A DNA stretch of 64,000 nucleotides from a virus (IMGVR_UViG_3300025115_000007:2708-66707); one strand, 5' to 3'. Positions 858-50,457 are shown, counted from the stretch's first letter. Notes: generated from the letters alone by a model not told the origin. Numbers and translations are program-made.

Positions 858-954
858 TATAAATAGGTATGAGAAGGTAATCCGGGTGATGGAGTCACAC
901 CGGAAACAGTAGGAGAACCTTACCGCTGTCCCTTCCACATATCACTTATTTATA
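858..954 (+). ncRNA. conserved structured leader motif, copy 1
   Basis: TATAAATA..GAAGGTAATCCGG..CCGGAAACAG..CTGTCCCTTC..TATTTATA; repeated at 42852 and 50365. Confidence 0.7.
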
Positions 955-968
955 AGGAGAACATCAAT

Positions 969-1829
969 ATGTCAACCAAACTAACCTATGATTTTATAAA
1001 ACAATATATCGAGTCTTTTGGCTATAAATTATTGAGTAATGAGTATCCAAATTCAGGGATAAAATTACAAATACAATGTTTGGAAGGACACGTATACAAG
1101 GCAGCGTGGAATACTTTTCAAGCAGGTCATAGATGCAAAAAATGTAAGTATATCAAACACGCCATAAATGAGAGACTTCCATATAATGATGTGAAAAACT
1201 ATATCGAAAATACTGGCTACAAATTACTAGATGATACATATAGTGGAGTAGGTATAAAACTAAAAATGATGTGTCAAAACAACCATATATGTCACATTTC
1301 ATATGATAACTATAAACATGGAAGAAGATGTGGACAATGTTACCAGAAAAAACAATATACATACATTGATGCCAAAAATTATATAGAGTCTAGTGGTTAT
1401 AAAAAATGTCAATTCCTCTCTAAAGGTCAAATGTCCAAAAGGCCATGTTTACAACACCAGACTTAGTAATTTCCAAAGGGGTAAAAGATGCCAAATATGT
1501 TGGGAATGCCAAACATACTCAAAACCAGAAAAAGAAATACTTGAATATGTTAAAAAAATATATACCGGTATAGTGAAACCCAATGATAAAAAAAACAAAT
1601 TACTAATCCATTAACCAAACGAAAGCTTGAACTAGACATATGGTTACCGGATACTAATAAAGCTATTGAATATAATGGCTCTTATTGGCATAGCTTACCG
1701 GAAAGACAATCTTGTGATATGGTAAAACAAGAACAATGTCGAATAAAAGGCATTGATCTATTGGTTATTCATGAGGATCAATGGTTACAAAACAAAGATT
1801 GGTCACTCATTGATAATTTTCTACGATAA
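969..1829 (+). pseudogene. homing endonuclease-like gene (Cys/His repeats + Vsr/PD-(D/E)XK domain), two frameshifts
   Basis: Three frames join into a paralog of 42952..43815; last piece reads ELDIWLPDTNKAIEYNGSYWH..FLR*; shifts near A-runs at ~1400 and ~1590. Confidence 0.75.
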
Positions 1830-2861
1830 TATATCCACTATATGGGGTATAACTTCTCCCGCACGAATTATGGTCACTATGGTGTCTTGTTGAATTTTAT
1901 TTTCCTTAATAAATAAGGCGTTAAACCCCGTTGCTTTTGAAATGGTTACGCCACCAATATCTATTGGTTCGAGTAATACAGTTGGTATAACTCTACCTAA
2001 CCGGCTGGTATTCCATTCAACACTAACAACCTTTGCCTCTATAGCTTCGGTGTTGCATTTGAACGCAACTTTATTTTCTGGAATCATGATGTTTTCGCGT
2101 AATGAATTATATACCACAATAACTAAGCCATCTATATCGTACTCCTCATCGGTTTTCCATTCAACCAATTTATCCACAAGAAATTCTGACATATTACCGG
2201 CGTTCTCAAATACCCGAGACTTTGGTGTAGATAAACCAATGGTTTGCAAAATTTTATCAGCCTCATATGCTGTAATTGACTTTCCATTGCGTACTATAAC
2301 TTCATAAAATACAGGACTAATTAATTCGACGTGTTCTAACCCCTTCCGGTTGGTAATACCAACCACACCATTACGTCGGTTCTTATAGCCAAGCTTCGTT
2401 ATATCAACGTCCTTCTTTAATACCAACTCACCACGGAATATAATTTTATCATTTGTGTTGATTTCCGGACAAATCACTTTTAGTTTATCACTAATATCTT
2501 GACCATATGAGCCATCACCTCTAGTGGCTCCGCGGACAACAACACCATTATTGTATTCTATATAAAATGATATTCCATCAAGTTTAGACATGACCTGGAA
2601 TGGACCCTTGTGGGAATCAAGCCAGGCCTTGACTGTATCAACCTTTACCTTATCCAATGAGCCAAGCACATATGGCAACTTGACCTTCTCACCGGCCGTG
2701 CTGGAACCAACTGTCTGGAAGTATGGATGGTCGGGCCAGAGAGTTTTGGCTTCGGTTTTTAGCCTGTCATATTGAGTATCAGATACCGAAGTCTTACCAA
2801 GGGTATGGTATTGTTTATCCCACTGTTTCAGTTGGCGTATTGTGGTGTCTTTGTTCATCAT
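1821..2861 (-). CDS. ligA: NAD-dependent DNA ligase, N-terminal part (adenylation + OB domains)
   Basis: SD..YD, SLDKV, KLDG, ATRGDG, RGE, DGLVI, AFK, RAGEVIP motifs. Confidence 0.92.
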   Translation of the reverse strand: MMNKDTTIRQLKQWDKQYHTLGKTSVSDTQYDRLKTEAKTLWPDHPYFQTVGSSTAGEKVKLPYVLGSLDKVKVDTVKAWLDSHKGPFQVMSKLDGISFYIEYNNGVVVRGATRGDGSYGQDISDKLKVICPEINTNDKIIFRGELVLKKDVDITKLGYKNRRNGVVGITNRKGLEHVELISPVFYEVIVRNGKSITAYEADKILQTIGLSTPKSRVFENAGNMSEFLVDKLVEWKTDEEYDIDGLVIVVYNSLRENIMIPENKVAFKCNTEAIEAKVVSVEWNTSRLGRVIPTVLLEPIDIGGVTISKATGFNALFIKENKIQQDTIVTIIRAGEVIPHIVDILS

Positions 2862-3169
2862 TTGACCTCTTTAATGAGTATAATCCGTTTGTCTGCCGGA
2901 ATCATTTCTATGATTTCCTGAAACGTCGGTGCTGGTCCACCTTCATTTACTTCACGTCGTAATCCATCCGCATTTACACCAAACTCATGTGTCCACACAG
3001 GCCGACCGATTGTTTTTTCAACCGCTTCGTGGAACACAGAAAATGGCATACAGAGCAATTTCTGGTTGATTTGGAACCGAGCTATGTCTTTCTGGCTCAT
3101 CTTCTCCCAAAATTTTGACTCGGCCAATGCAACAGCTTGTTCTTTGGTCAATATGTTATTTCCTTTCAC
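2858..3169 (-). CDS. conserved hypothetical phage protein
   Basis: ORF overlapping ligase start, downstream of TTGACA-17-TATAAT promoter. Confidence 0.7.
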   Translation of the reverse strand: MKGNNILTKEQAVALAESKFWEKMSQKDIARFQINQKLLCMPFSVFHEAVEKTIGRPVWTHEFGVNADGLRREVNEGGPAPTFQEIIEMIPADKRIILIKEVK

Positions 3170-3275
3170 ACCAAATATAGATATATTTTACCCATTTTTA
3201 GATATTTCTTGGTTGTATTATACCACAATCACAATGTTTTGTCAAATAAAATGTTCATCAATAGTATCATATACT

Positions 3276-3352
3276 TGGCGAGCCGGCAAGGATTTGAACC
3301 CTGATCTTACCGCTTTGGAGGCGGATATGCTATACCGTTGCACCACCGACTC
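3276..3352 (-). tRNA. tRNA-Trp(CCA)
   Basis: cloverleaf, loop CT-CCA-AA, encoded CCA end. Confidence 0.9.
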
Positions 3353-3355
3353 GTA

Positions 3356-3541
3356 TTAGTGAAGGGTTTCATCCCTTGGCATCAGTTCTCTCATGTACCG
3401 GATCTGATCCTTGAACGCCTCTATCAGCTTGTCCTTCTCATATACAGACCAGGCTAGCTCCTTGTTGGCATCTATCAAGGTTTTCACGTCCTGCTCAAGA
3501 CAGGATATGCGATACAGCAGGTTGTGGGTTTCTTGGTCCAT
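3356..3541 (-). CDS. hypothetical coiled-coil protein
   Basis: RBS GAGGAGG, packed operon. Confidence 0.6.
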   Translation of the reverse strand: MDQETHNLLYRISCLEQDVKTLIDANKELAWSVYEKDKLIEAFKDQIRYMRELMPRDETLH

Positions 3542-3544
3542 GGG

Positions 3545-3904
3545 TTAAAGGGCCTCCTCATAGGCTTTATAGGCCACAAGTACATCGGTGAGTTCTTCGG
3601 AAAGGACAATGAGTACTTTCCAGCTATATTTACCATACATATTCTCAATGGCCTGGATGACCTCTCTTGGATCCCTTGGAGGTTCAACGGCGGTACCTAT
3701 TTCCAAGATAACTGGTGGATTCTTCCGGTAAGCGTAGACAGTGGCACCGGAAACTTCCACGCCTTGTGTGAGTGCCGCAGCAACCACTTCATTGGCGGTA
3801 CTCTTCGGCATTTTTCTAATAAGTCCACAAACAATGACCTTATCCTCGTAAGTAAGACGTTCACCCTTTCTACTAGGGGCTGATGTTACCGACTGTTCAT
3901 TCAT
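3545..3904 (-). CDS. hypothetical protein, possible HTH
   Basis: overlapping stop/start with upstream gene; VSGATVYAYRK helix. Confidence 0.6.
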   Translation of the reverse strand: MNEQSVTSAPSRKGERLTYEDKVIVCGLIRKMPKSTANEVVAAALTQGVEVSGATVYAYRKNPPVILEIGTAVEPPRDPREVIQAIENMYGKYSWKVLIVLSEELTDVLVAYKAYEEAL

Positions 3905-4503
3905 CTTTTGGTCCTTTCTTTGAGTTGGGTTAATAGATCCTTGCTTATCCGGTCTTTATAGGTATCAATATCCTCATTAAGGAAGAGGATGGTAAAATCG
4001 GTACACTCGGCAAACCTCATCCAACAGATACAGACAGAGCCACAGTCTCTATCCTTCAACAATTTCTCCAAGTCTTCCAGGATGAATCCATATGGCACCT
4101 CAAAGGCAAAAATCAGCTCGGCATCAATGAATCCACATACTATTAGGCGCGCCTTTTCGCCAAGGTCTCTAATACCGCCGAGTATCTTTAGTGAAAGATG
4201 ACTCCACGAACACTTTCCAGCTAAGTTTCCTGTGTATTGACCCTTGATCTCAAAAAACACATCATCGAGTTTGCCATCGAATGAGTCGGACTTGAGCCAC
4301 ATTATACCCCTTATAGCACATATCTCACGTTCCACATCTTTAGGGTTACACATTTTCAACCGGCGGATGCAGTGGGCTAAGCCCAGAGCATAGTCTGGTA
4401 GATAAGGAAACTTTTCAGTGAGATAGGCATCAAAGGCCTTAACTGTATGAAAGTGGCCATAAGCATTATCTATGGTATCAAGGACAATCTTACTTGGATA
4501 CAT
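3901..4503 (-). CDS. hypothetical protein, possible PD-(D/E)XK nuclease
   Basis: FDG....FFEIK motif; RBS GGAG, sigma70-like promoter at ~4531-4559. Confidence 0.5.
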   Translation of the reverse strand: MYPSKIVLDTIDNAYGHFHTVKAFDAYLTEKFPYLPDYALGLAHCIRRLKMCNPKDVEREICAIRGIMWLKSDSFDGKLDDVFFEIKGQYTGNLAGKCSWSHLSLKILGGIRDLGEKARLIVCGFIDAELIFAFEVPYGFILEDLEKLLKDRDCGSVCICWMRFAECTDFTILFLNEDIDTYKDRISKDLLTQLKERTKR

Positions 4504-4568
4504 CTTTTATCTCCACAAATTTGATAGACCATACTATCATATTACAACACGTTTGTCAAGTAAATCTT

Positions 4569-4642
4569 TGGGTAACTGCCGGGAATCGAACCCGAGTGAA
4601 CAGGGCCACAGCCTGTGGCTTTACCACTAAGCTACAGTCACC
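4569..4642 (-). tRNA. tRNA-His(GTG)
   Basis: cloverleaf with G-1 and C73, CCA. Confidence 0.9.
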
Positions 4643-4648
4643 ATAATA

Positions 4649-4745
4649 TAGTGGTGAGGAATCGAACCTCACAGTAAACAGCCTTATCCTCTGTACTTCT
4701 GGCACTGGGTTCCTTTGGATAAGTGTGCCTCTGTTTACTCCTCCA
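4649..4745 (-). ncRNA. tRNA-like RNA with T-arm and internal pseudoknot
   Basis: TGAGG-TTCGATT-CCTCA T-arm; stem GTAAACAG/CTGTTTAC enclosing crossing pairs GGCAC/GTGCC and TTATCC/GGATAA. Confidence 0.5.
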
Positions 4746-4753
4746 GGACGTTT

Positions 4754-4828
4754 TGGAGCGTCCGGCCGGAGTTCCACCGGCATCTTACACCTTGGAAGGG
4801 TGGAGCCTTAGTATTAGACCACGAACAC
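4754..4828 (-). tRNA. tRNA-Gly(TCC)
   Basis: loop CT-TCC-AA, U73, CCA; atypical T loop. Confidence 0.75.
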
Positions 4829-4836
4829 TGATGTTT

Positions 4837-4911
4837 TGGAGCGGGGCACCAGACTCAAACTGGTATCTGATTGACTGGCGGTCAACCGCTTTATCATTAA
4901 GCTAACCCCGC
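4837..4911 (-). tRNA. tRNA-Gly(GCC)
   Basis: loop CC-GCC-AG, U73, CCA. Confidence 0.75.
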
Positions 4912-4993
4912 TGTGATCCTATGTTGGCGGATGGGTTGGTAAGTCCGGAAGCTCCGGTATTCTACAACCAATCGATGCACCAACTTGTGTATT

Positions 4994-5066
4994 TGGTAGC
5001 GGCGGACAGAATCGAACTGTCTAAGATGGCGTTATGAGCGCCACTGGGCTTCCAAGCCTCGCCGCA
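4994..5066 (-). tRNA. tRNA-Met(CAT), short D-arm, 1:72 mismatch (initiator-like)
   Basis: loop CT-CAT-AA, GTTCGATT T loop, CCA. Confidence 0.7.
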
Positions 5067-5073
5067 ATAAATC

Positions 5074-5148
5074 TGGTAGAGCATCCGGATCTTGAAACCG
5101 GACCTATGGCTTGAAGGGCCATTGTACTGACCTTTATACTAATGCTCT
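5074..5148 (-). tRNA. tRNA-Glu(TTC)
   Basis: stem ATGGC/GCCAT, loop CC-TTC-AA, CCA. Confidence 0.7.
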
Positions 5149-5356
5149 ATACATCACTAACCTTAACGACTTGGTTGGGTTTCTGTAGGATTTCAAGGTC
5201 CCAACCGGTCGGTACATTCCATGTGTTTCTATAAGATATCTTTAGGGCGGTAGGTGTGAATTTGATAACCGTTCCTATGACCAGTGAACGGTATTTTGGT
5301 GCTATCATTACCACCTTATCTCCGAGGGATATTTCCTTACCAACAAAGTCTCTCAT
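5147..5356 (-). CDS. hypothetical protein (KOW/SH3-like)
   Basis: D..G.EI.LGD.V pattern; overlapping start/stop. Confidence 0.6.
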   Translation of the reverse strand: MRDFVGKEISLGDKVVMIAPKYRSLVIGTVIKFTPTALKISYRNTWNVPTGWDLEILQKPNQVVKVSDV

Positions 5357-6969: not shown

Positions 6970-7007
6970 ATGTACCTCCCTTCATACATATTGCACGGTT
7001 GCAATGG

Positions 7008-11994: not shown

Positions 11995-12068
11995 TGGTGG
12001 GATCGGTTGGACTTGAACCAACAGTCAAAGCCTTATAAGGACTACGCTTTACATTAAGCTACGACCCC
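11995..12068 (-). tRNA. tRNA-Ile(TAT)
   Basis: loop CT-TAT-AA, A73, CCA. Confidence 0.85.
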
Positions 12069-16988: not shown

Positions 16989-17067
16989 GGTCCGTTAGCT
17001 TAGTCCGGCTTAAAGCACTGGCTTGTCACGCCAGAGATCGTGAGTCCGAATCTCACACGGATCGCCA
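16989..17067 (+). tRNA. tRNA-Asp(GTC)
   Basis: loop TT-GTC-AC, G73, CCA. Confidence 0.9.
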
Positions 17068-22214: not shown

Positions 22215-22379
22215 ATGAGTAAAGCAGCCAGTGGTGGCGGCAAAAAAATTGGCCGTCACAAAACACATTGTGCTCAGTACCGAGCCTCTGGACGACGGGA
22301 GAAGAACAAAGCCCGTGTGGCCCGTAAGATTGCAAAGATGCTGGCCAAAAAAAGCAAAAAGAAAGGGGGCGTGAATTAG
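22215..22379 (+). CDS. small basic protein (54 aa)
   Basis: MSKAASGGGKKIGRHKTHCAQYRASGRREKNKARVARKIAKMLAKKSKKKGGVN; RBS GGGGTGA; not in ORF track. Confidence 0.6.
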   Translation: MSKAASGGGKKIGRHKTHCAQYRASGRREKNKARVARKIAKMLAKKSKKKGGVN

Positions 22380-22725
22380 TTTCGACGGAGATAACTGAAA
22401 TTACAGGTGCATGTCGAGGTGTCTACTAGGCCTCGTAAAACCAGTAGAAAACCATAATCGCAGATAACTACGATTACGCTTACGCTGCCTAGACGGCGTA
22501 CATCATTATCGAGACTTTCTTACCGGGCTCTTTAATGGTGTCATTAAGGTAAGATAGCTTTAGTACCAGACCTTAGTGGGACTAAGGCGAAACAACATAA
22601 GGATGTTACTGGAAAATCTTAGCCTTTGAGAGTTTCCAGGTAACGAGAACAAAGCAAAGGAGAAGCATGTGGAAACTGTAATGACGTATTTACGGACGCC
22701 GGGGCAGAACCGGCCACGTCCACCA
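22367..22725 (+). ncRNA. ssrA: tmRNA, tag ADNYDYAYAA
   Basis: acceptor GGGCGTG/CACGTCC with G3-U70, ACCA end, TTCGAC 5' motif, tag frame 22460-22492. Confidence 0.93.
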
Positions 22726-22877: not shown

Positions 22878-22964
22878 GGCTGAGTGGCGTAATTTGGCAG
22901 ATGCGCTCGCCTCAAGAGCGAGTGGCCTATGGCCGTGAGAGTTCGAGTCTCTCCTCAGCTACCA
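22878..22964 (+). tRNA. tRNA-Leu(CAA)
   Basis: type II cloverleaf, CCA. Confidence 0.92.
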
Positions 22965-22973
22965 GGATAACAT

Positions 22974-23059
22974 GGGAGACTGGCGTAACTGGCAGCCGCG
23001 CTGGTCTTAGGAACCAGTGGTTTAGCACCGTCAGGGTTCAACTCCCTGGTCTCCCACCA
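22974..23059 (+). tRNA. tRNA-Leu(TAG)
   Basis: type II cloverleaf, CCA. Confidence 0.92.
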
Positions 23060-23068
23060 AAAATAAAT

Positions 23069-23153
23069 GGAAGTGTTGAGCAGGTGGTGGGCTCCGCTGA
23101 CTGTAAATCAGCCGTCTATGACCGTCATGGTTCGATTCCATGCACTTCCACCA
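23069..23153 (+). tRNA. tRNA-Tyr(GTA)
   Basis: loop CT-GTA-AA, variable arm, CCA. Confidence 0.9.
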
Positions 23154-23160
23154 AACATAA

Positions 23161-23250
23161 GAGGTGAGTTCTCCGTGGCCGGCTGCAACCCGGCTGTCAT
23201 AAAATAAGCGGAGTGGCCGACGAGTGGTCCAAATCCACCTCATCTCTCCA
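23161..23250 (+). tRNA. non-canonical tRNA-Cys(GCA), 8/4 fold, no D-arm
   Basis: 8-bp acceptor, 4-bp T stem, U73-CCA, GCCGG-CTGCAAC-CCGGC. Confidence 0.6.
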
Positions 23251-23258
23251 GAACATAA

Positions 23259-23333
23259 TGCGTTGTGGCCGAAAGGACAGGCACCATACTGTTAATATGG
23301 GATAAGCAGGATCGTTACCTGCCAACGCAGCCA
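23259..23333 (+). tRNA. tRNA-Asn(GTT)
   Basis: loop CT-GTT-AA, G73, CCA. Confidence 0.88.
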
Positions 23334-23343
23334 ATAAGCATAT

Positions 23344-23417
23344 CGGAAATTGGTGTAGGGGTTGCATCCGTGGCCTGGGACCATGTGGAGATTGTTCGAC
23401 TCAATCATTTCCGACCA
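23344..23417 (+). tRNA. tRNA-Pro(TGG)
   Basis: C1-G72, loop CC-TGG-GA, CCA. Confidence 0.8.
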
Positions 23418-23422
23418 GATAC

Positions 23423-23498
23423 GCCGTGTGAGCAAGTCCAGTGATTGCGCCGGTCTGAAGAACCGGATAACTCCGTGCAACTCGGAAACACGGCACCA
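23423..23498 (+). tRNA. tRNA-Phe(GAA)
   Basis: loop CT-GAA-GA, CCA. Confidence 0.85.
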
Positions 23499-23503
23499 GA
23501 TAT

Positions 23504-23581
23504 GGGCCTGTAGTTCAAATGGATGAACGTCCGGCTACGGACCGGAATGATATGTGGGTTCGAGTCCCATCGGGCCTTCCA
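23504..23581 (+). tRNA. tRNA-Arg(ACG)
   Basis: loop CT-ACG-GA, CCA. Confidence 0.88.
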
Positions 23582-23583
23582 TT

Positions 23584-23659
23584 GCCAGGGTAGTTTAACC
23601 GGTAAAACACGGTCCCCGTAAGACCGGTGATGAAAGTTCAAACCTTTCTCCTGGCTCCA
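23584..23659 (+). tRNA. tRNA-Thr(CGT)
   Basis: loop CC-CGT-AA, CCA. Confidence 0.82.
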
Positions 23660-23660
23660 A

Positions 23661-23737
23661 GCTGGCGTAGCTCAAGTAGGTAGAGCAAGGCCCCTGTAAG
23701 GCCGAGGTTGGGGGATCATGGCCCTCCGCCAGCTCCA
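23661..23737 (+). tRNA. tRNA-Thr(TGT)
   Basis: loop CC-TGT-AA, CCA. Confidence 0.8.
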
Positions 23738-23745
23738 GAACACAC

Positions 23746-23819
23746 GCTCTGTTAGTTCAGTGGTAGAACGCATCCTTGGTAAGGATGAAACGCTGGCTCG
23801 CTTCCAGCACGGAGCTCCA
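23746..23819 (+). tRNA. tRNA-Thr(GGT)
   Basis: loop TT-GGT-AA, CCA. Confidence 0.85.
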
Positions 23820-23825
23820 GTATAT

Positions 23826-23899
23826 TTAGGCGTAGGAGAATTGGTAAATCCGCCGGACTTTGAATCCGGAGACTGCTGGTTCGAGACCAGCCGCCTAAG
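23826..23899 (+). tRNA. tRNA-Gln(TTG)
   Basis: loop CT-TTG-AA, G73, CCA not encoded. Confidence 0.88.
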
Positions 23900-39257: not shown

Positions 39258-41396
39258 TCAGTCATCCACCCCAGACTCCATAATGACTCCAGAGCGTAGA
39301 AATGTACCAAGTGGACTCTTTGATTCATCAAGGCTTGCAGGTGGTGGAAAACCATGTTGCTTGCATAGATCACCCAAACCCTCTCTCATCCGGCGCTTAT
39401 GTTCCTCACCCTTGATACCGTCCTTGGTAAGCCTGGATTTGAGTTTTTTCAGCTCAGATTTGATCTTTTTGAAGCCAGGTCCCTCATAGGATGCATTGGA
39501 CATGGCCTTCTCATCATCGAACCGGTGACCAATCTTCCAGTTATCCATATCCGCGGAGCCCTTCTCTATAATCATAGCCATTGTGCCGCCAGGCATGATA
39601 AACATGTGGTTAAACTCCACCTTATCAAATCCACCATTGGATGCCACACTATGCTGGAAGCCAAGGCAGGTAGCAAGGGCCCGTGGGTCCTTCATTACCG
39701 CAGAAGCATTACTCTTGCCAACAATCGCCGCCACTTCTTCCTCATCGATGCGTTCCTTCAGTTTCTTGGCATACTTCTTATTCAGGTCATCGATCTTAGC
39801 CTTGGTCTTTGAGTCTGGCCGTGTAGTCACATTGAGCTTTTTATATTCCTCACGGTAGTCCTTTAGGAATGTCTGAATGGTATCGCTTTTAGCTCCCAAC
39901 TTCTTACCCACCGTACCTTTCCACTTGTCATCCTTATCTAGGATATCATCATGGATACCCACTGTATGCTTACCGGACCTAAGGTGGCCAACAATATCCG
40001 GGTCTTTTTTCGATAGCCTGGTAAACTGGTTTACATTGGAACCAAACCCGAGGCCGTCCTCGCCGGACTTTATGGATATTGACTCCACCTTCTCTATGGT
40101 CACTTTGCCATCCTGGCCCTTAGCCTTACGAGTGATCCTGAGCTTATCACCTATGGGGAAGTTACCGGATACAGGCAGGTAAACCTCTTTCTTGTTAGCC
40201 ACCTCGCTCTCATAGGCACATGTTTCCGCAAGCTGCTTCATAACAGCCAAGCCTACCTTACGGTCCTTGTCATATATGTCATCTATGGCCTTGGCATATG
40301 AGCTTTGGATACGCTTTGCCAGCTTTGATTGGCCGTGTTCATCCTTATCCCAGAGGTCATTTTTCCTCACATCACTAGCAATGGCGGCCATCCTATCCTT
40401 ATGCTTTGACAGTATATCCGACAACCCCTCATCTATATCCCCATCAGTTTCCAACTCTTTCAGCTTGTTGATAGTTCTATCCAACGACACATTTTTTGTA
40501 ATGCTGTCCTGGAGATACTGCCTGTGATTCTCCGAGTCGTTCTGTATGAATATACCATCGGAGTTGGTAATGCCATATATGTTGTGGAACTTTTTATCCA
40601 GATCACCCAGGTCTTTACTGGTCAACATGTCCGATACGTCGGAGAAGGAGGAGCTATGTAATGCGGTTAGCCCAAGTTCCGGTTTGGCGGCAGCTGTTAT
40701 CTCACTGGCCGCTTTGCCTCCAGAGCTGGGTATCTGGACAGCACCTTTACCAAAGTGGTCGAAATAGTCTTTGAGATCCTTGGACGCCGGCGCCATGGCC
40801 TTGATGCCATCTTTGTCTCCAATAGACATTATCCTCACGTCACCTTTCTTGTTTACCGTGAGGTTGAAGTCCCGGATCAGTTTTTCCAGGTAATCTTTTT
40901 GGCCTAATTCGTCCTTATCATTGATACCATTGAGCTTCTTTGCTAGATCCGGTACAACCTTATCCAGGCACTCTTTGGCCTGACCGGCAGAAACAGCCAC
41001 GGAATCATAAGACTGGATTAGGCTATGACTGGTACTGAATGACTGGTAAGCATCAGGGTCAGAAGGGCTGGGAACCTTGGTTTTCAGGAACATGGCGGAT
41101 TTTTGTTCTTTGCCGGATGCGGCCATGGAAGGATTTGGTGGGGCCTGCGATGCTTGAGATCCAGATGGAGATTGTGATCCAGAGGAGGATTCCGATGGTA
41201 GCTCTGATGCACTTGGAGCGGGCCCTTCTTTTTTATCTAACCATTTGAATTTACCACCGGTTGTTGTGGCCACTACATTACCAGTCTCATCCTCCCAATT
41301 ACCAAAACTACCATGTTTAAGTTTATGAGACCTAGCTACATCAGCCGGTGAAACACCACCTTTAGCGGCTTCCTCTAACCATAACCTAAAGCTCAT
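39258..41396 (-). CDS. large late protein, probable internal virion protein
   Basis: N-terminus MSFRLWLEEA, low-complexity linker, charged. Confidence 0.65.
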   Translation of the reverse strand: MSFRLWLEEAAKGGVSPADVARSHKLKHGSFGNWEDETGNVVATTTGGKFKWLDKKEGPAPSASELPSESSSGSQSPSGSQASQAPPNPSMAASGKEQKSAMFLKTKVPSPSDPDAYQSFSTSHSLIQSYDSVAVSAGQAKECLDKVVPDLAKKLNGINDKDELGQKDYLEKLIRDFNLTVNKKGDVRIMSIGDKDGIKAMAPASKDLKDYFDHFGKGAVQIPSSGGKAASEITAAAKPELGLTALHSSSFSDVSDMLTSKDLGDLDKKFHNIYGITNSDGIFIQNDSENHRQYLQDSITKNVSLDRTINKLKELETDGDIDEGLSDILSKHKDRMAAIASDVRKNDLWDKDEHGQSKLAKRIQSSYAKAIDDIYDKDRKVGLAVMKQLAETCAYESEVANKKEVYLPVSGNFPIGDKLRITRKAKGQDGKVTIEKVESISIKSGEDGLGFGSNVNQFTRLSKKDPDIVGHLRSGKHTVGIHDDILDKDDKWKGTVGKKLGAKSDTIQTFLKDYREEYKKLNVTTRPDSKTKAKIDDLNKKYAKKLKERIDEEEVAAIVGKSNASAVMKDPRALATCLGFQHSVASNGGFDKVEFNHMFIMPGGTMAMIIEKGSADMDNWKIGHRFDDEKAMSNASYEGPGFKKIKSELKKLKSRLTKDGIKGEEHKRRMREGLGDLCKQHGFPPPASLDESKSPLGTFLRSGVIMESGVDD

Positions 41397-42817
41397 TCCA
41401 ACACTCTCCTAATCACGCTTTCCTTGATCTCTTCCTTGGCCTTCTCTCCACCTTTAACTGTTATGGCGTACCGTTTGGCCGGGTTCACCGAAAGGTTGGC
41501 CAGCTTGATAAACCCACGACTCATGAGTACCGGTGTGGTCATATTCTCCCGGTTACTCAGGGTAAACTTTACGTCCTTGTATGTAGTGCCATTGAACACC
41601 ACATTGAGTTCCACCACGGGACGTTCCTCATACTCAGACCTCACCCCACCAATCTTCACCCGCTTATTTTCTATAAACTTGTGTTCATATTCTTTGCCGT
41701 TATGGGTCCAAGTAACATATCCATCTTTAACCTCCCACTCATTGGCATGTATGACACTGTATGACCCGTTGCCTGTGTCCATCTTAGCCACCATCTCACC
41801 AAGAACCTCGATGTTTATCATTTCAAGGTACCCACATTCAATGGGTTTCAGCTGCCAGTTTTTCTTATTGAGCGCATAGTCAAGGACCATCTTAACTACC
41901 GACTTACCGGTGGCCTTTTCTATACCTTCTGTACCAGGTGAGGTGTTGACTTCTATTATATATGACTTACCGGATTTGTCAACCATCATATCCACACCGG
42001 CCCATGTAGCCCCTACTGCTTTGGCTGAGAGCAATGCGATTTTCTCCTGCTCCTCGGTCAGTTTAACCTCGGAGACTTTACCGCCCAGGCTGAAGTTGGA
42101 CCTGAAGTCCCTCTTGATCTTAAAGCGTTTCATGGCGGCAATGACTTTGTTCCCAAGCACATGAATCCTGAGGTCATGATTGGCCTCTATATACTCCTGA
42201 AACAACACCTCTGTATTGGGATTGATCTTCCAGATGGCCTGAAGGGTGGATTTCAGTGATTCTATCCTATCGACAATGAATACCCCTAGACCTTTGGAGC
42301 CCGCAAGGGTCTTGACTATGATGGGAAACTTGGAGCCTACCTTCTTGATGCCGGCATCTATAGCTTCCTCACCAGGCACAACGGCCGTAAGGGGTACCGG
42401 TATACCTGAGTCAGCCAGACGCATGATGGTCCTATATTTATCCTCAGCTATCTCCATCGACTCTCGTGTGTTGATGGTAAACATATCCTGATGTTCTATT
42501 TGAGAAAGAAGATCACTGGATGCTTTTTTTCTAATGACTGAGTTTCGGACTATGAAGGCGGTATCGTTCTTGTCTATCTCAAAGCCGGCCTTACCGGTCT
42601 CATTGTATATCCTAGTTCTACCTTGGTCATCTTTCTCCAAGAAGGCCTGTTCGGCAAAGGCCACGAAGCATTTTATGCCCCTTTGGTCACACATAGACTT
42701 TATCTTACCAGCTGTGACAAAGTAGCCTGATGAATTTTCAGAACTCTTACCAGATAAAACAACGATCCTGATTGCTTTATCCATCTTAGCCTCATCAATA
42801 AAATCATCAAAACGCAT
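41393..42817 (-). CDS. rimK: RimK-like ATP-grasp ligase fused to RimB-like (DTG) protease
   Basis: DKY, P.IVK..GSKG.GV, QEYI, D.R, FRSN, GVD, EVN.SPG; C-terminal AKMDTG..R..M..PVL. Confidence 0.88.
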   Translation of the reverse strand: MRFDDFIDEAKMDKAIRIVVLSGKSSENSSGYFVTAGKIKSMCDQRGIKCFVAFAEQAFLEKDDQGRTRIYNETGKAGFEIDKNDTAFIVRNSVIRKKASSDLLSQIEHQDMFTINTRESMEIAEDKYRTIMRLADSGIPVPLTAVVPGEEAIDAGIKKVGSKFPIIVKTLAGSKGLGVFIVDRIESLKSTLQAIWKINPNTEVLFQEYIEANHDLRIHVLGNKVIAAMKRFKIKRDFRSNFSLGGKVSEVKLTEEQEKIALLSAKAVGATWAGVDMMVDKSGKSYIIEVNTSPGTEGIEKATGKSVVKMVLDYALNKKNWQLKPIECGYLEMINIEVLGEMVAKMDTGNGSYSVIHANEWEVKDGYVTWTHNGKEYEHKFIENKRVKIGGVRSEYEERPVVELNVVFNGTTYKDVKFTLSNRENMTTPVLMSRGFIKLANLSVNPAKRYAITVKGGEKAKEEIKESVIRRVLE

Positions 42818-42851
42818 TCCAAGTCTCCATTGGCACCATGTTAGACATATT

Positions 42852-42941
42852 TATAAATAATCATGTGAAGGTAATCCAGGCGCTAGTACGCACTGGAAAC
42901 AGCGAGAGTTAGCTGCTGTCCCTTCATATCAACTATTTATG
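42852..42941 (+). ncRNA. conserved structured leader motif, copy 2
   Basis: compensatory changes relative to copies 1 and 3. Confidence 0.7.
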
Positions 42942-42951
42942 AGAGGTCACC

Positions 42952-43815
42952 ATGTCAAAAAAATTACAATACCAATATGTAAAGGAGTTCATAGAATCCG
43001 TTGAAGGATATGAACTTATAAGTAAAACCTATAAAAGCCTTCAAGAACATATATCAATAAAATGTCAAAATGGTCATGTATACCAAACAAGTTTTTGCAT
43101 TTTTAGGTGTGGCTGTAGATGTCCAAAATGTAAAGGTGTTGCTAGATATACGTATGAACAAATAAGGCAATCAATACATGATATTGGATATGAACTTATA
43201 AGCGAAACCTATAAAAATGTTTATGAAAAACTTGACATAAGGTGTGATGTTGGTCATATATTCCAAATGTGTTACCATGATATAGACAATAAACATAAAT
43301 GTCCAAAGTGTTTTGGTAAATTTCGTCATACCATTGAATACATAAAGGAGTATATTAGTGGTATTGATGGTTATAAAGCACTACTAACAAAATATATAAA
43401 CAATTCCACAAAAATTCCTATAGAATGTCCCAAAAAACATGTTTTTGAGATGAGTTTTAACAATTTTCAACGTGGACATCGATGTCCTAAATGCGCTAAG
43501 CTATTAAAAAGATCGAAAGGTGAGATTGAAATATTTGAATATGTAAAAACGATCTATGATGGTTCTATAATACCTAATGATACTCACACCATTTTCAATC
43601 CCAAAACAGGAAGGTATGTCGAGTTAGATATATATTGTAAAGATATTAGTAAGGCCATTGAGTTTGGCTATAAATATTATCATACAAATAATTATAAAGA
43701 TAGGTTAAAAGTCAATGAATGTAAAAGGTTGGGTATAAATTTGTTGGTTATTGACTATAACGATTGGGTGAAAAATAAAGACCTTGGGATTATTCATAAA
43801 TTCATCCTAGGTTAA
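42952..43815 (+). CDS. homing endonuclease-like protein (Cys/His repeats + Vsr-like domain)
   Basis: three C..GH/CPKC repeats, SKGE, ELDIY...KAIEF..YYH. Confidence 0.8.
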   Translation: MSKKLQYQYVKEFIESVEGYELISKTYKSLQEHISIKCQNGHVYQTSFCIFRCGCRCPKCKGVARYTYEQIRQSIHDIGYELISETYKNVYEKLDIRCDVGHIFQMCYHDIDNKHKCPKCFGKFRHTIEYIKEYISGIDGYKALLTKYINNSTKIPIECPKKHVFEMSFNNFQRGHRCPKCAKLLKRSKGEIEIFEYVKTIYDGSIIPNDTHTIFNPKTGRYVELDIYCKDISKAIEFGYKYYHTNNYKDRLKVNECKRLGINLLVIDYNDWVKNKDLGIIHKFILG

Positions 43816-45414: not shown

Positions 45415-45434
45415 AGTGTTATTCTGTCTCGACC

Positions 45435-45463
45435 TATTTATAAGAGGCTCGCCTGTATAAATA
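45435..45463. promoter_or_regulatory. divergent T4-type late promoters
   Basis: TATTTATA 45435-45442 and TATAAATA 45456-45463. Confidence 0.75.
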
Positions 45464-45481
45464 GATCATATGAGGTGATAT

Positions 45482-45838: not shown

Positions 45839-45839
45839 C

Positions 45840-46328: not shown

Positions 46329-46546
46329 TGAAATACCTCATATACCTATTAACCACATTACTGTTACTGCTGGGTTGCTCGACAAAGCAAATCATACCAC
46401 CTGAGCCAAATTATAAACCAATTCATGCTTTGGAATTCAGTAATGGTATATGTTTTGACACTGAAAATGCTAAGAACCTTATGGAGAACATAAAAGCCCT
46501 AAAGGCTTACCAGGAAGAATTAGTAAGATTGTTAAAGGAGAAGTAA
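46325..46546 (+). CDS. small lipoprotein (spanin-like)
   Basis: lipobox LLGC. Confidence 0.55.
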   Translation: MMKYLIYLLTTLLLLLGCSTKQIIPPEPNYKPIHALEFSNGICFDTENAKNLMENIKALKAYQEELVRLLKEK

Positions 46547-46547
46547 T

Positions 46548-46778
46548 ATGGATATAGTAAGGAAGATAGAAAACATTCTCGGCGAGTCCAAGACTGACAG
46601 CTACAAGCACCTTGGGTACGCTAATGCCTGGCACGCACCTATAAATGAACCCGTTCCAGAGATATACAAAAAGTGTAAGGCCAAGAACCACAAGCTAAGC
46701 CATCATTATGTTGGAAGAGACAGTGAGTATTACTGTGATATATGCAAGTTCAAGTTCAATGTGGATAGCTCAGATTGA
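46548..46778 (+). CDS. small Zn-binding late protein
   Basis: MDIVRKIENILGES; C..H..CDIC..DSSD. Confidence 0.6.
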   Translation: MDIVRKIENILGESKTDSYKHLGYANAWHAPINEPVPEIYKKCKAKNHKLSHHYVGRDSEYYCDICKFKFNVDSSD

Positions 46779-47248
46779 ACCTAATGAACTTGGTATTTGA
46801 TCCGAAAAAGCATAGCATCTTCACCCCGATCAATAAGGACAAATACAGGGGTGATGTTTTTCCGGTGGTAAGATCATCATGGGAGGACAAATTTTACAAG
46901 TGGTGTGATATGAATCCACACATCACATCATGGGTAGTTGAGGGCCTGGCTATAGAATATTTCGACCCTGTGAAAAAGAAGAACCGGAGGTACTATCCGG
47001 ATGTGCTTATGGCTGTTAAGACCAATGAAGCTAAAGATAAGATATTTTTGGTAGAGATCAAACCATATAAGGAAATAGTGCCTCCAATTGTATCCCCTAA
47101 GAAAAAGGAGAAAACAATGCTTCGGGAATCGGTGACCTATAGGACCAACATGGCTAAATGGAAAGCAGCGGAGCTATACTGCCGGAAGCGAAATTGGGAA
47201 TTTAAGATACTTAGTGAAAAGGACCTGTTCAAGGATGGAAAAGCATGA
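46775..47248 (+). CDS. gp4: head completion nuclease (gp4-like)
   Basis: P.N..KY.GD...RSSWE....RYYPD....EIKP....N.AKW.AA. Confidence 0.88.
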   Translation: MNLMNLVFDPKKHSIFTPINKDKYRGDVFPVVRSSWEDKFYKWCDMNPHITSWVVEGLAIEYFDPVKKKNRRYYPDVLMAVKTNEAKDKIFLVEIKPYKEIVPPIVSPKKKEKTMLRESVTYRTNMAKWKAAELYCRKRNWEFKILSEKDLFKDGKA

Positions 47249-47793
47249 TTACCGTCTATGACCATGTGAGAATAGGCACTGTTCATTTCAGGTCTGGCAG
47301 ATTTTATACATACCTGTACACAAATTATTCCAATGATCCAGGTCCTGTGGGTGTTATGGTAAACTACGTACATGGCATCCACCCAGTTACCGGTAATATG
47401 CATCAGTACCTGCAAATGATCAATTTGAATTATGTCCCGAGACAGTTCCGCCGGCTCTTTGTGGAACAATGGCGGGCCCATCTCAAGGCCAATAAAGGCC
47501 AAGTACTACTAACCTGGAGAAAGGTGAGGTCAAAGTTCCCATTCCTCCAATTTGCATTACGACGTTACCATGTCAATAGGGGCTTCATAAAATATCAAAG
47601 GCTGATCCCAGATGAGGACCTTGAGAAGGTGGTTATATCTTCCTTTAGCCGGGACTTCTCCATTACAGCATGGAAGCAGGCCATAAAGCTAAGAGGTGGT
47701 AAAAAGGGCGGACCCGGTAGAGCCACTTTGTCCAATAAACCTCTCAGCGGTAACACATGGTTTATGAAAAGGGTTTTCAGTCCGCCTATATAA
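47245..47793 (+). CDS. gp2: DNA end protector (gp2-like)
   Basis: G.FY.Y.Y, INLNY.P..R, RRY; adjacent to gp4. Confidence 0.6.
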   Translation: MITVYDHVRIGTVHFRSGRFYTYLYTNYSNDPGPVGVMVNYVHGIHPVTGNMHQYLQMINLNYVPRQFRRLFVEQWRAHLKANKGQVLLTWRKVRSKFPFLQFALRRYHVNRGFIKYQRLIPDEDLEKVVISSFSRDFSITAWKQAIKLRGGKKGGPGRATLSNKPLSGNTWFMKRVFSPPI

Positions 47794-47803
47794 GGGGTAT
47801 TCA

Positions 47804-48097
47804 ATGGCAGAAGATTTGTATCCAAGTCCAGGTTTATACGGTGTACCTATTGCAACGAAGCCGGCAACCAAGGCCAACTATGCTAACTATATGCTAAATA
47901 TGGTATTAACCCCATCTACCTATAAGTGGAAAATAGAAGGTATCGATGTTCGTTGGCGGGAAAGCTATGAAGGTAAAAGGTTACCGAGAGATTATTACAC
48001 CATGACCTATTCTAATAACCCACCAGAAATCATCGGTACACTAGAGTATTATTTAGACTCCGACGTTATTATAAACGTGGTATGTGAGGAAATATAA
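47804..48097 (+). CDS. hypothetical virion protein
   Basis: late operon. Confidence 0.55.
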   Translation: MAEDLYPSPGLYGVPIATKPATKANYANYMLNMVLTPSTYKWKIEGIDVRWRESYEGKRLPRDYYTMTYSNNPPEIIGTLEYYLDSDVIINVVCEEI

Positions 48098-48387
48098 TGA
48101 AAACCTATACAACCTTATACAATGGTGAGACCAGAGCATTGGGTATCTATGTTAGAGATCAGAACGATGATGACTTTGTTGCCACCAGTGCCAGCACTTA
48201 TATCAAAAACTCATCCGATACCATTCTGGTGAACGAACTTACGGCCATGATCTCCGGTTCATCTGTATATGCTTTGGTGGATGAAACTATAACCAGTGCA
48301 TCCGGTGATTATGAGGTGGTATGGAAACTCATTAGGTCTGGATACATTTATAAACATGTAACAGGTGTGAAGGTAGTTGATGTATGA
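48097..48387 (+). CDS. hypothetical virion protein (Ig-like)
   Basis: beta-rich, G.Y.V.W. Confidence 0.55.
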   Translation: MKTYTTLYNGETRALGIYVRDQNDDDFVATSASTYIKNSSDTILVNELTAMISGSSVYALVDETITSASGDYEVVWKLIRSGYIYKHVTGVKVVDV

Positions 48388-48560
48388 TGAATGTAGACGA
48401 TATAACCACAAGGCTTAGTTTCACCGACCTATCACCACTTATCAATGTGGTTGGTGTTGCGACCAGGCCTAACTACTTTTTGGAGGCATATGACAGCACC
48501 TGGATATATTGGAGGATTGTAGTGGACTTCTTTGACCAGCTTGCAGGAGATATATACTAA
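48384..48560 (+). CDS. small hypothetical protein
   Basis: 58 codons filling gap with overlapping stops/starts. Confidence 0.45.
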   Translation: MMNVDDITTRLSFTDLSPLINVVGVATRPNYFLEAYDSTWIYWRIVVDFFDQLAGDIY

Positions 48561-49066
48561 TGGCTAATCCTCAGACAAACATACTGGATAGAATGACTGG
48601 TATATATCAGCCATTAGAGACTCCAAAGGCCATACTGACAATGATTTTCGTGGTGGCTAGCGATGATGATAGGAACAATATGACTCCAATAGCACTATCC
48701 GCCTCGGACTTGTTTGAGTTGGATGAATATGGTGATTACCAACCATTATCCTATACATCACCAGTAAGTTCTAGTACCTATTATGAGCTGGACTATAGCA
48801 ATAATATAATGCCAAAAGCCGTCTCCTTCAACTTCAATATAAAGACATATGAGCAGTATTACGCGTTCAAAACGAGTGTGGAGTTGACTATGGGGGTTCA
48901 CACTATTGCTTTTAGGGAAACAACGGCATGGCAGTATAGGGTGGATAATGGAACCTGGACTAATTTTCCAGGTAACACTCGCTTAGATATAGATCCATCA
49001 GCTGCTCCGGAGGATGTGGTGTTCGATTTGCAACGAGATATGAGTATATATATTATAACACTATGA
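48560..49066 (+). CDS. hypothetical virion protein
   Basis: late operon, RBS. Confidence 0.6.
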   Translation: MANPQTNILDRMTGIYQPLETPKAILTMIFVVASDDDRNNMTPIALSASDLFELDEYGDYQPLSYTSPVSSSTYYELDYSNNIMPKAVSFNFNIKTYEQYYAFKTSVELTMGVHTIAFRETTAWQYRVDNGTWTNFPGNTRLDIDPSAAPEDVVFDLQRDMSIYIITL

Positions 49067-49076
49067 GGACTCATCC

Positions 49077-49385
49077 ATGAGGCATCTTTTTTCTGGTAGA
49101 GCACGGGACACGTATGGTAAAATTCAAGCCGGTATACCTGTAACCATATACTTCGCCAATACTGTATCCGCGGCTCCTGTGTACACAACCTATTCAGCAG
49201 TAACCGCGAGTACAGTAGCCCCGCAGGTTTCGGCTGATGCCGCCGGATACTTTGAGTTCTATGTAGATGATACTGAGATAATACCTACCAACATCTTTGA
49301 TATAGTGTGCCAAAGTGTGACCTATGAAAACATTGACATATTCAAAGGTGCTTGGTTCAACCCAAGAAAATACTTTGTGCTATAG
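49077..49385 (+). CDS. tail fibre/spike attachment-like domain protein
   Basis: D..G....G..VTIY.A.T...A.VY....DA.G.FEFYVD. Confidence 0.6.
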   Translation: MRHLFSGRARDTYGKIQAGIPVTIYFANTVSAAPVYTTYSAVTASTVAPQVSADAAGYFEFYVDDTEIIPTNIFDIVCQSVTYENIDIFKGAWFNPRKYFVL

Positions 49386-49394
49386 GAGATCAAT

Positions 49395-49748
49395 ATGGCC
49401 TTCGATTATAATAGAATACTAGAGATAACATCGTTAGGAGTGTCAGCTGGATCCAACACCTTAGTAACCAATGGTACCGGCAGAAAATACATCCGGAACG
49501 TTATCCTACATAACACCCATACGGCTGATGTGGTGGTTAAACTATTCAATGTGCCTAATAATGGCGCCGCGGTCGGATCGTCCTCATCGGCTAATCAGTT
49601 CCTACAGAGTTCCTTAGTAGCTGGTGATACATTGATGATAGAGATACCGGCGCCGGGGATTATGTTGGTGGATCAATATGATAGCATCCAAGGCTATGCG
49701 GACATAGCTTCTAAGGTGACAATACAGATATATGGCGGCACGGAATAA
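49395..49748 (+). CDS. hypothetical virion protein
   Basis: beta-sandwich pattern ending G.E. Confidence 0.6.
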   Translation: MAFDYNRILEITSLGVSAGSNTLVTNGTGRKYIRNVILHNTHTADVVVKLFNVPNNGAAVGSSSSANQFLQSSLVAGDTLMIEIPAPGIMLVDQYDSIQGYADIASKVTIQIYGGTE

Positions 49749-49947
49749 TTTCACTTGACATGAGTATGGGAGTGTGATATAATGCGTCTGATAGGTTGGC
49801 TGAATGAATCATCTGTGGTAAATGGAAAAAGAAAATCCTGCCAAGGATATAAGGTTGTCAAATGTTTATAAATACATTATGGACCTATCCAGGGGTATAA
49901 CTCCGGGCTGATAGCCTATTATACACTGAGTTTAGGAGGATGTAAAC

Positions 49948-50247
49948 ATGAAGCTGGAAAAATACTTACAGGAAGGTAGTGTGGATATTACCAAATGGGA
50001 GGTATACAACCTCATTGATGAGCTAATGGAAGATCCAAGGACCTCAAAGTTTATGAACCCGGCCGCCCGCTATGCTGACCAGTATCATATAGGTAAAGGG
50101 ATACCTGTAAAGATAGCCGCCAAGATGTTGGGTGTTACGGTAGCCCAATTACCAAAAGTTATAGAAAAGATCAATGGTAACACAGGCAGGTATGACGGTT
50201 TAGCTGAAATTTATGATGATTATCTACATGTATATGGTGGTGATTAG
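49948..50247 (+). CDS. late hypothetical protein
   Basis: TATAAATA 49867, MKLEKYLQEG. Confidence 0.65.
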   Translation: MKLEKYLQEGSVDITKWEVYNLIDELMEDPRTSKFMNPAARYADQYHIGKGIPVKIAAKMLGVTVAQLPKVIEKINGNTGRYDGLAEIYDDYLHVYGGD

Positions 50248-50364
50248 TACCAGCTCAAATTCTATACAAAAGGATGGTGATCAACGTGGGTGACAAGAAA
50301 AAGGGTAAGAAAGCCAAGGGTGGTAAGAAACCTAAGAAGGAGGCCAAAGGGTAGGTGAAGCTCT

Positions 50365-50457
50365 TATAAATAGATATGAGAAGGTAATCCGGGTGAGGGT
50401 ATCACACCGGAAACAGTAGGAGAACCTTACCGCTGTCCCTTCCATCGTCTATTTATA
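50365..50457 (+). ncRNA. conserved structured leader motif, copy 3
   Basis: core identical to copy 1 except one hairpin loop. Confidence 0.7.

Follow-up and report, generated by a model that had tools for sequence, protein, structure and literature searches.

The stretch of viral DNA analysed here, called the window, comprises 64,000 nucleotides (nt) of an IMG/VR record (IMGVR_UViG_3300025115_000007:2708-66707); the parent record is a T4-like phage fragment of 66.7 kb, judged 42% complete. Three nuclease genes in the window are each preceded by a copy of a small structured element, whose core of ~63 bases has the architecture P1-UAA-P2-AA-P3-CUGUC-P1, with three stems (P1, P2 and P3) joined by a three-way junction (J). 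The genes behind copies 1 and 2 encode homologous Zn-ribbon nucleases (PHROG 559/681), and copy 3 precedes the sole GIY-YIG gene of the record, in which no HNH gene was found. An initial annotation, made by a model from the sequence alone, had reported the three copies, and they lie and read as it claimed. A scan of the window with three conserved blocks separated by gaps (GAAGGTAATCC-N-GGAAACAG-N-CTGTCCCTTC) gave the three cores, all on the + strand (Table 1), and 0 matches in 100 shuffles of the window; an unfiltered covariance-model scan of the window added none to these three, and its next-ranking match scored 11 bits.

Each core stands between a late-promoter-type box, TATAAATA, and the ribosome-binding site (RBS) of the following gene. 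Copies 1 and 3 have the same base at 60/63 core positions, all three changes falling within the P2 loop as had been noted, and are identical in 99/115 columns from box to ATG; the 150 nt on either side are unrelated. Copy 2 carries the compensatory changes in P2 that had been pointed out (TCCAG/CTGGA vs TCCGG/CCGGA; GCG/CGC vs GTGA/TCAC). When the full regions are folded, the box TATAAATA pairs with CTATTTAT in all three copies, forming a closing stem that is capped by the three-way junction (z = -2.9 to -3.8) and ends 0-3 nt into the Shine-Dalgarno sequence, in line with the early suggestion of a closing stem next to the RBS; both strands of these regions fold about equally well. The flanking boxes are inverted repeats, as had been stated: at copies 1 and 3 TATAAATA occurs on both strands (858/947; 50365/50450), and at copy 2 the right box reads CATAAATA on the - strand. 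The window contains 18 TATAAATA boxes, against 4.3 expected. Two pairs of opposite-strand TATAAATA boxes, at 42848-42859 and 45435-45463, stand back to back between divergent genes.

Table 1. Coordinates of the three element copies, their flanking boxes and the genes that follow, counted from the first base of the window.
Feature	Position	Strand	Remarks
Copy 1, late-promoter-type box TATAAATA	858-865	+	5' arm of closing stem; from box scan and fold
Copy 1, core	873-935	+	P1 873-877/931-935; J UAA 878-880; P2 881-904; P3 907-925; J CUGUC 926-930
Copy 1, RBS copy AGGAGAAC in P3 loop	911-918	+	
Copy 1, right box TATTTATA	947-954	+	TATAAATA on - strand
Copy 1, RBS AGGAGAAC	955-962	+	Directly after right box; ATG at 969
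Copy 1, broken Zn-ribbon homing-endonuclease gene	969-1614	+	Two frames: 969-1466, 1393-1614
Second, divergent TATAAATA near copy 2	42848-42855	-	Faces gene 41393-42817
Copy 2, box TATAAATA	42852-42859	+	
Copy 2, core	42867-42925	+	P1 42867-42871/42921-42925; P2 42875-42897; P3 42900-42915; J CUGUC 42916-42920
Copy 2, TATTTAT then RBS GAGAGG	42934-42946	+	CATAAATA on - strand; ATG at 42952
Copy 2, gene for intact 287-aa nuclease	42952-43815	+	Zn-ribbon repeats (DUF4379/CapR)
Copy 3, box TATAAATA	50365-50372	+	
Copy 3, core	50380-50442	+	P1 50380-50384/50438-50442; P2 50388-50411; P3 50414-50432; J CUGUC 50433-50437
Copy 3, RBS copy TAGGAGAAC in P3 loop	50417-50425	+	
Copy 3, right box TATTTATA	50450-50457	+	TATAAATA on - strand
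Copy 3, RBS TAGGAGAAC	50456-50464	+	Overlaps right box; ATG at 50471
Copy 3, GIY-YIG/NUMOD3 endonuclease gene	50471-51362	+	Split in two frames: 50471-50605, 50538-51362

The element belongs to a family that extends well beyond this phage. The strictest search pattern recovered 5 further IMG/VR contigs, and a 22-base pattern recovered 64, of which 59/64 pass covariance model R1 at E <1. The 22-base pattern also has 62 matches in 596 billion bases of bacterial and archaeal genomes; since about 65 would be expected by chance (our own estimate) and only 11/62 pass the model, the element is viral and not a general bacterial one. In one case, the same class A element (see below) with the same flanks is present both in an IMG/VR contig (L140) and in a contig assigned to a metagenome-assembled genome of Caulobacterales (L182, genome_contigs), the latter being probably phage DNA in a bacterial bin. 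No match was found among INPHARED phages by BLAST with the flank, the three elements or two regions of class B. The element had been called uncatalogued, and no family of Rfam 15 matches it, hammerhead, twister, pistol, hatchet, C4 and HEARO being among those covered: nothing reaches the gathering threshold at the element in the window, the best matches at copy 1 are unrelated fragments with E of 0.46 or worse, and five class A and B loci gave no match at the element on either strand at E up to 5.

The proposal of a structured element was strengthened by covariation in two sets of loci. In the 74 matches picked by the motif pattern (60 distinct), 94.2% of cells are paired vs 68.2% after shuffling, a value reached in 0/500 shuffles; double changes occur at 13/18 pairs, and controls with slid partners have at most 52% of cells paired. 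Because these loci had been selected by the motif, a second set was fetched, consisting of 80 loci chosen solely by a homologue of a major-tail protein. Of the 79 that were searched, 23 carry the element just after the tail gene, with 92.0% of cells paired vs 66.5% in shuffles and covariation at 16/18 pairs. This second set conserves G-UAAU before P2, (G/A)AAAC opening P3 and GCUGUCC closing into P1, while the first pairs of P2 vary and some junction variants occur, e.g. UUAU, UUAG and CAAC. The covariation defines P3 as a C...G hairpin directly after GGAAA (CAGC/GCUG, CAGU/ACUG, CGCG/CGCG, CACG/CGUG) and leaves CUGU(C) unpaired, so that the ACAG/CTGT pairing drawn at first is not the covarying register. 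In a mixed-class MAFFT alignment the junction was misaligned, and model-based alignments were used instead. As judged from these alignments, the element is a phage-wide family of ~55-80-nt predicted three-way junctions, in which P1, P2 and P3 vary and the junction G-UAAU/(G)AAAC/GCUGUCC is kept.

Two classes can be distinguished by orientation and by the relation of one loop to the neighbouring RBS. Class B comprises 45 distinct elements from the pattern set plus those of the tail set, and comes from diverse phages. Read in the orientation of the initial annotation, both neighbouring genes lie on the opposite strand in 41/74 matches, and the element is antisense to the tail gene at all 23/23 tail loci. 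Class B elements are found within operons, after a stop codon and 10-40 nt before the next start codon, and the gene upstream is often, as judged by eye, a major tail, sheath, capsid-like or portal-like gene. In 35/45 of them the P2 loop complements 6 nt or more of the 5' flank, on the P1a side (7 nt or more in 25/45), compared with 3 to 9 of 45 at 6 nt or more for the seven other combinations of loop and flank; with the tail set included, a P2-loop complement is present in 43/60 elements. An open reading frame (ORF) of at least 50 codons starts no more than 30 nt past the partner, in the mRNA sense, in 40/43 of these cases (38 at 3-13 nt, with a mode of 9), and the partner contains a Shine-Dalgarno tetramer in 27/43. 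The paired words (GTAAGGAG, TAAATAGG, TTAACGG, GGATTGG and CGGAGGG are examples) vary from phage to phage, and the pairing of loop and RBS therefore covaries. Wobble pairs extend the helix better in the mRNA sense (15 vs 4, with 24 ties), and a U-rich tail (at least 5 of 8) follows the structure in 19/55 cases in that sense vs 7/55 in the other; these two features indicate that the working class B molecule is the reverse complement of the motif as first read. The sequences thus describe a predicted pseudoknot that sequesters the Shine-Dalgarno sequence, in which the class B P2 loop pairs with the RBS of the next gene.

Some further features of P3 and of the junction were seen in this material. 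In class B, P3 frequently forms an even palindrome, perfect across the apex, e.g. CGCGGGCCCGCG, CATGTGCACATG and CAAGAGCTCTTG (L098:451-512, L134, L127, L132, L056). A palindromic apex of at least 6 nt occurs in P3 of 26/60 elements and in P2 of 8, and one of at least 8 nt in P3 of 14 and P2 of 2; this could reflect RNA dimerisation or a role at the DNA level. A subgroup of seven elements (L009, L019, L014, L092, L135, L151, L143) shares GGUUU(U)C just 5' of the closing pairs of P2, which could pair with the junction GAAAC in an alternative fold. Two class B contigs also contain the Rfam int-alpA RNA elsewhere (L036:5982-6048, 51.1 bits; L038:7145-7215, 49.6 bits).

With those from a metagenome scan, class A numbers 27 distinct elements, among them all three copies of the window, and has the element on the coding strand of the next gene. 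A TAAATA-containing + strand box is present in 26/27 and ends 8-10 nt before the GG of P1 in 22/26; the late-promoter box lies 5-7 nt before P1. On the other side, TATTTA stands 7-14 nt past the core in 24/27 elements and is directly followed by the RBS. Its - strand reading is [T/C/A/G]ATAAATA, and its spacing to P1 equals that of the sense box. Position 2 of this - box remains A in 21/24 elements, including 5/5 cases with a C opposite it in the + box, and pairing alone therefore does not explain the facing box. In the class A element L105:7740-7860, TTATACTATA precedes the core and again the RBS, forming a direct repeat that replaces the usual inverted TATAAATA/TATTTATA pair.

In class A the relation of loop and RBS is one of identity. 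The P3 loop shares with its own RBS a word of 7.41 nt on average, reaching at least 7 nt in 22/27 elements, and with the RBSs of the other elements one of 4.58 nt, where 6.4% reach 7 nt; the observed mean was attained in 0/2000 permutations. This match extends into the spacer, reaching ~12 nt at most, and copies within one genome differ in it. In the window the words are AGGAGAAC for copy 1, TAGGAGAAC for copy 3 and only GAGAG for copy 2, so that the P3' loop on the opposite strand complements the RBS over 8, 5 and 9 nt in copies 1, 2 and 3. No class A loop is complementary to a flank, and no complement to the RBS beyond chance was found on the + strand between -120 and +200 of class A elements (4.87 vs 5.14 when shuffled). 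Since identical strings cannot pair, the RBS-complementary partner lies on the antisense strand of P3.

The genes served by the two classes bear on the early idea that the motif moves independently of the nuclease family and serves selfish endonucleases. The first part holds for T4-like contigs, where the element precedes GIY-YIG, HNH, LAGLIDADG and Zn-ribbon/Vsr-like genes. In detail, class A genes encode GIY-YIG proteins of three Pfam types with NUMOD3, HNH proteins (L140, L142), a LAGLIDADG protein (L292), members of the Zn-ribbon family to which ORFs 969 and 42952 belong, a zinc-finger protein, and a protein that weakly matches PHROG families bearing the names endonuclease VII and HNH endonuclease. 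The second part applies to class A and only partly elsewhere. Of 20 class B proteins that were scanned, 5 have GIY-YIG or HNH nuclease domains and 3 more have NUMOD1/I-HmuI-like, DUF723 or DUF7487 domains, which belong to homing endonucleases or are taken as endonuclease-like; the remaining matched proteins are a DNA methylase, a DUF1376 protein, a RepA_N protein and two Prim-Pol primases. Pfam matches were absent in 7/20, including one of the proteins that are tail-chaperone-like by position, and one of these seven has PHROG matches named resolvase or endonuclease. The two gene lists together indicate that endonuclease genes are enriched, not exclusive.

The odd feature of the family is that one conserved core occurs in both orientations and that its loop is in one case the complement and in the other a copy of the neighbouring RBS. 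The family may serve to hold down translation of the adjacent gene by acting on its RBS. As the comparison shows, the transcribed strand in most phages is the reverse complement of the motif as first read, and the loop pairs with the RBS just downstream in a predicted pseudoknot, hiding the Shine-Dalgarno sequence. The window copies have the opposite orientation, inside what would be a T4-type endonuclease leader, and only longer read-through transcripts could close the stem of box and CTATTTAT beside the RBS; the late start would lie ~6 nt after the box. The RBS-complementary loop would then reside on the antisense strand, where a late-promoter-type box is likewise found with equal spacing (a perfect one in copies 1 and 3, CATAAATA in copy 2). 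From this facing box a short antisense RNA might start, with the same fold as in other phages, and its P3' loop would pair with the endonuclease RBS as IS10 RNA-OUT does with RNA-IN, providing a second brake atop the known temporal control. Of the mechanisms listed in the initial annotation, an antisense switch is the one that we favour for the window copies; on sequence grounds, T4-type temporal control combined with an antisense short RNA aimed at the RBS seems plausible rather than probable. A broader formulation, in which a portable RNA scaffold presents a programmable loop to the RBS, as a cis pseudoknot in most phages and as a trans antisense RNA from a second late promoter in T4-like phages, and may respond to a ligand or protein, is rather unlikely to hold in full.

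Folded small RNAs whose loop acts on the RBS of a selfish or toxic gene are known from IS10 RNA-IN/RNA-OUT, where opposing promoters exist as well, and from the c4 antisense RNA of phage P1. The element has no match to the Rfam C4 family and, unlike in IS10 and c4, the antisense RNA proposed here would not overlap the RBS, contact being made through a separate copy in the loop. In the cyanophage S-PM2, an antisense RNA is reportedly encoded opposite a homing-endonuclease gene.

Several observations weigh against the proposed antisense RNA. A search of sequencing runs for this sequence found one DNA run, which may be the source sample, and no RNA run. The first T is present in only 14/24 of the - strand boxes vs 23/26 of the + strand boxes, and the identity of P3 loop and RBS is equally strong in elements that have no canonical - box (L119, L105, L285, L081, L142; 7-9 nt), the mean shared word being, by our own tally, about 7.1 with such a box vs 7.7 without. 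Copy 2 itself offers only a 5-nt match to its RBS and the CATAAATA box. An antisense RNA would in any case be fully complementary to the sense leader, so that a separate contact of loop and RBS would be partly redundant. The closing stem extends only 0-3 nt into the Shine-Dalgarno sequence. As for the transcribed strand, counts of G·U vs A·C in the stems are 23 vs 16 overall, 6 vs 7 in class A and 6 vs 13 in the tail set; folding energy favours the + strand in 15/34 cases and the - strand in 18/34; and no wobble bias was found among the transition mismatches between P3 loop and RBS (47 vs 51). The points that weigh most are that no RNA run was found and that the RBS copy persists in elements whose facing box is poor.

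The sense strand alone could also account for class A, the element being the apical part of a classical T4-type endonuclease leader. In T4, a hairpin at the RBS prevents the expression of such genes from early and middle transcripts, and a late promoter inside the hairpin frees the RBS late; the leaders of I-TevI, I-TevII, I-TevIII, segB and Aeh1 mobE are described in the same terms (PMC2988022). The window copies resemble this type in having a TATAAATA box immediately 5' of the endonuclease gene, within a stem arm that only longer transcripts can form, a 3' stem arm at the RBS and, as predicted from the box, late expression; a stem that ends about the start of the RBS, as here, is described for seg43(25) too, whose hairpin ends just 5' of it (PMC2988022). 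On a sense-only account, early and middle read-through transcripts would fold the long stem beside the RBS and be poorly translated, late transcripts would start at P1 with the junction as a 5'-terminal structure stabilising the mRNA, and the RBS-like P3 loop would be a decoy or a standby site for ribosomes. Orientation and position directly 5' of the RBS in 27/27 class A elements, the + box in 26/27 and closing stems that fold in 3/3 copies all agree with this. The account leaves unexplained why gene-specific spacer bases are copied beyond the Shine-Dalgarno core, why a loop matches its own gene within one genome, and why the junction is invariant when its orientation is the reverse of that used by other phages; nor does a leader ORF start at the conserved CUG, as there is no frame preference, with frames of 9, 7 and 11 relative to the ATG. 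Unlike in the T4 type, the stem is capped by a conserved three-way junction common to unrelated phages, stops 0-3 nt into the Shine-Dalgarno sequence, and is accompanied by a loop that duplicates the RBS and a second box that faces the first. We consider the sense-only account possible, if doubtful.

A close relative of the window copies may have been seen before. Dassa et al. (2009) found hairpins in 15/16 endonuclease 5' UTRs (untranslated regions) of metagenomic 'fractured gene' loci, with TATAAATA in 10 of them. The Vsr-like and GIY-YIG genes were preceded by two complementary motifs that are conserved, and a DNA ligase gene is among the genes split there (PMC2677866). The likeness to our loci is considerable (environmental T4-like phage DNA, the same two nuclease types, a split ligase, a late box in a 5' UTR hairpin), and these conserved hairpins are in keeping with a sense-strand role as well. 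What sets the two apart, as far as the text description of those loci goes, is that it mentions hairpins and no three-way junction, pseudoknot or RBS copy, and that split inteins and endonuclease genes of the same orientation occur in the loci, while the present locus has, by eye, no space for an intein and carries its endonuclease gene on the opposite strand. The motifs of Dassa et al. may be the outer part of the present element.

Shine-Dalgarno-sequestering pseudoknots are familiar from riboswitches such as SAM-II and preQ1-II, and class B shares with these a folded core and a loop that pairs with the downstream RBS. It differs from the SAM-II/preQ1-II type in its three-way-junction core without an Rfam match, and the window copies differ further in lacking a cis pseudoknot. 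The junction might accordingly be a sensor, i.e. a riboswitch aptamer or a site for a host or phage protein, that sets the pseudoknot of loop and RBS, the window copies being a derived use. About 20 junction-proximal bases are fixed while three stems covary in contigs of 26-68% G+C, the RBS is part of the pseudoknot, as it is in OFF riboswitches that act on translation, and the served genes are of a kind needed at low dose (nucleases, primases, RepA, chaperone-like). Yet most of the invariant bases were imposed by the search patterns and the unbiased set varies at them (UUAU, UUAG, CAAC), no ligand, alternative fold or associated set of metabolic genes was found, and the inverted orientation of class A is unfit for a cis aptamer, which together make a sensor clearly unlikely.

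A DNA-level module had been raised at the outset in the form of a mobility cassette. Here a repeated cassette of promoter and stem-loop would promote the shuffling and recombination of endonuclease genes, or single-stranded DNA would adopt the structure, and orientation would be irrelevant; the PeSL cassettes of T4-type phages provide the model. Occurrence in both orientations relative to the served gene fits this, as do the ~105-bp repeat with unrelated flanks that copies 1 and 3 form, the sharing of the element by unrelated nuclease families and the palindromic P3 apex of at least 6 nt in 26/60 elements. Such a cassette is possible in principle, but leaves unexplained that gene-specific relations of loop and RBS lie right where translation begins; the bias in wobble pairs favours RNA, and variable spacing speaks against recognition of duplex DNA. 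We regard this account as improbable. A small self-cleaving ribozyme processing the leader is the least probable of all: its small conserved junction, a + strand GAAAC...GUC resembling half a hammerhead core and the class B site between genes of one operon, where processing would be suitable, are outweighed by a 5' junction strand that reads UAAU in place of CUGANGA, by the covarying register of P3, which leaves CUGU single-stranded and breaks a hammerhead-like stem III, and by the lack of any match to an Rfam ribozyme family on either strand at E up to 5-10.

As regards novelty, the logic of a promoter within a hairpin is already known for T4 endonucleases, while the conserved junction, the pseudoknot, the RBS copy and the two orientations appear to be new; our literature searches found no account of the three-way junction, its spread beyond T4-like phages, the RBS pseudoknot, the RBS copy in P3 or the use of two orientations. 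A catalogue of 8,495 candidate structured RNAs was derived from IMG/VR in 2023, many of them no more than 25 nt upstream of genes (PMC10690425). It draws on the same data source and contains elements of similar size, and its main text, to which the comparison was confined, mentions no endonuclease-associated motif; the element may already be present there, unnamed, as a DNAVirus_X entry.

The nuclease genes of the window merit a brief description. The product of ORF 42952-43815 matches PHROG 559/681/3339, families named endonucleases, and its C-terminal domain has a weak match to PDB 3r3p, a 'mobile intron protein' (E 0.094, with a 4-sequence profile). Its supposed likeness to Vsr was not recovered by Pfam, which finds Zn-ribbon repeats only, or by a single-sequence search of the PDB. 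None of five distant homologues of this nuclease, the only 5 loci found, has the element nearby (0/5). The copy 3 gene matches PF01541 (GIY-YIG; E 1.5e-7) with an internal stop and contains NUMOD3 repeats. Frame changes break two of the three endonuclease genes (969-1614 and 50471-51362), 42952-43815 alone being intact; this could be due to decay or to an assembly error.

The copy 1 cassette splits a gene for NAD-dependent DNA ligase. Both halves are on the - strand, with the adenylation and OB domains at 1824-2861 and the HhH and BRCT domains at 15-773, so that the break falls between the OB fold and the Zn-finger/HhH/BRCT part; the interval between the halves (774-1823) holds the endonuclease gene on the opposite strand and, by eye, has no room for split-intein pieces. 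Just upstream of the C-terminal half there is a sigma-70-type promoter, TTGACA-17-TATACT with TG (11/12), at 793-821 (-), followed by GAGGA and ATG; given this near-consensus promoter, the C-terminal half may be expressed on its own. The phage fragment further contains a tmRNA at 22367-22725 (139 bits) and 14 tRNA matches, at 3279-5148 (-), 11998-12068 (-), 16989-17064 and 22878-23899.

Homing endonucleases need an expression level just sufficient for their spread and harmless to the phage, and to our knowledge little is known about how free-standing ones are restrained outside T4. What began as a curiosity of three copies is now a family numbering more than 90 distinct elements, for which a rule can be put to the test: the conserved scaffold carries a loop matching the RBS of whichever gene is served. 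Family members also indicate where endonuclease genes insert, namely behind major tail, sheath, capsid and portal genes, and can aid the annotation of contigs from uncultured phages. If binding of a ligand or protein, or the antisense RNA, proved true, the element would represent a new class of phage regulatory RNA, acting as a compact and programmable brake on translation, and a riboregulator shared by phages and selfish endonucleases to quiet harmful genes.

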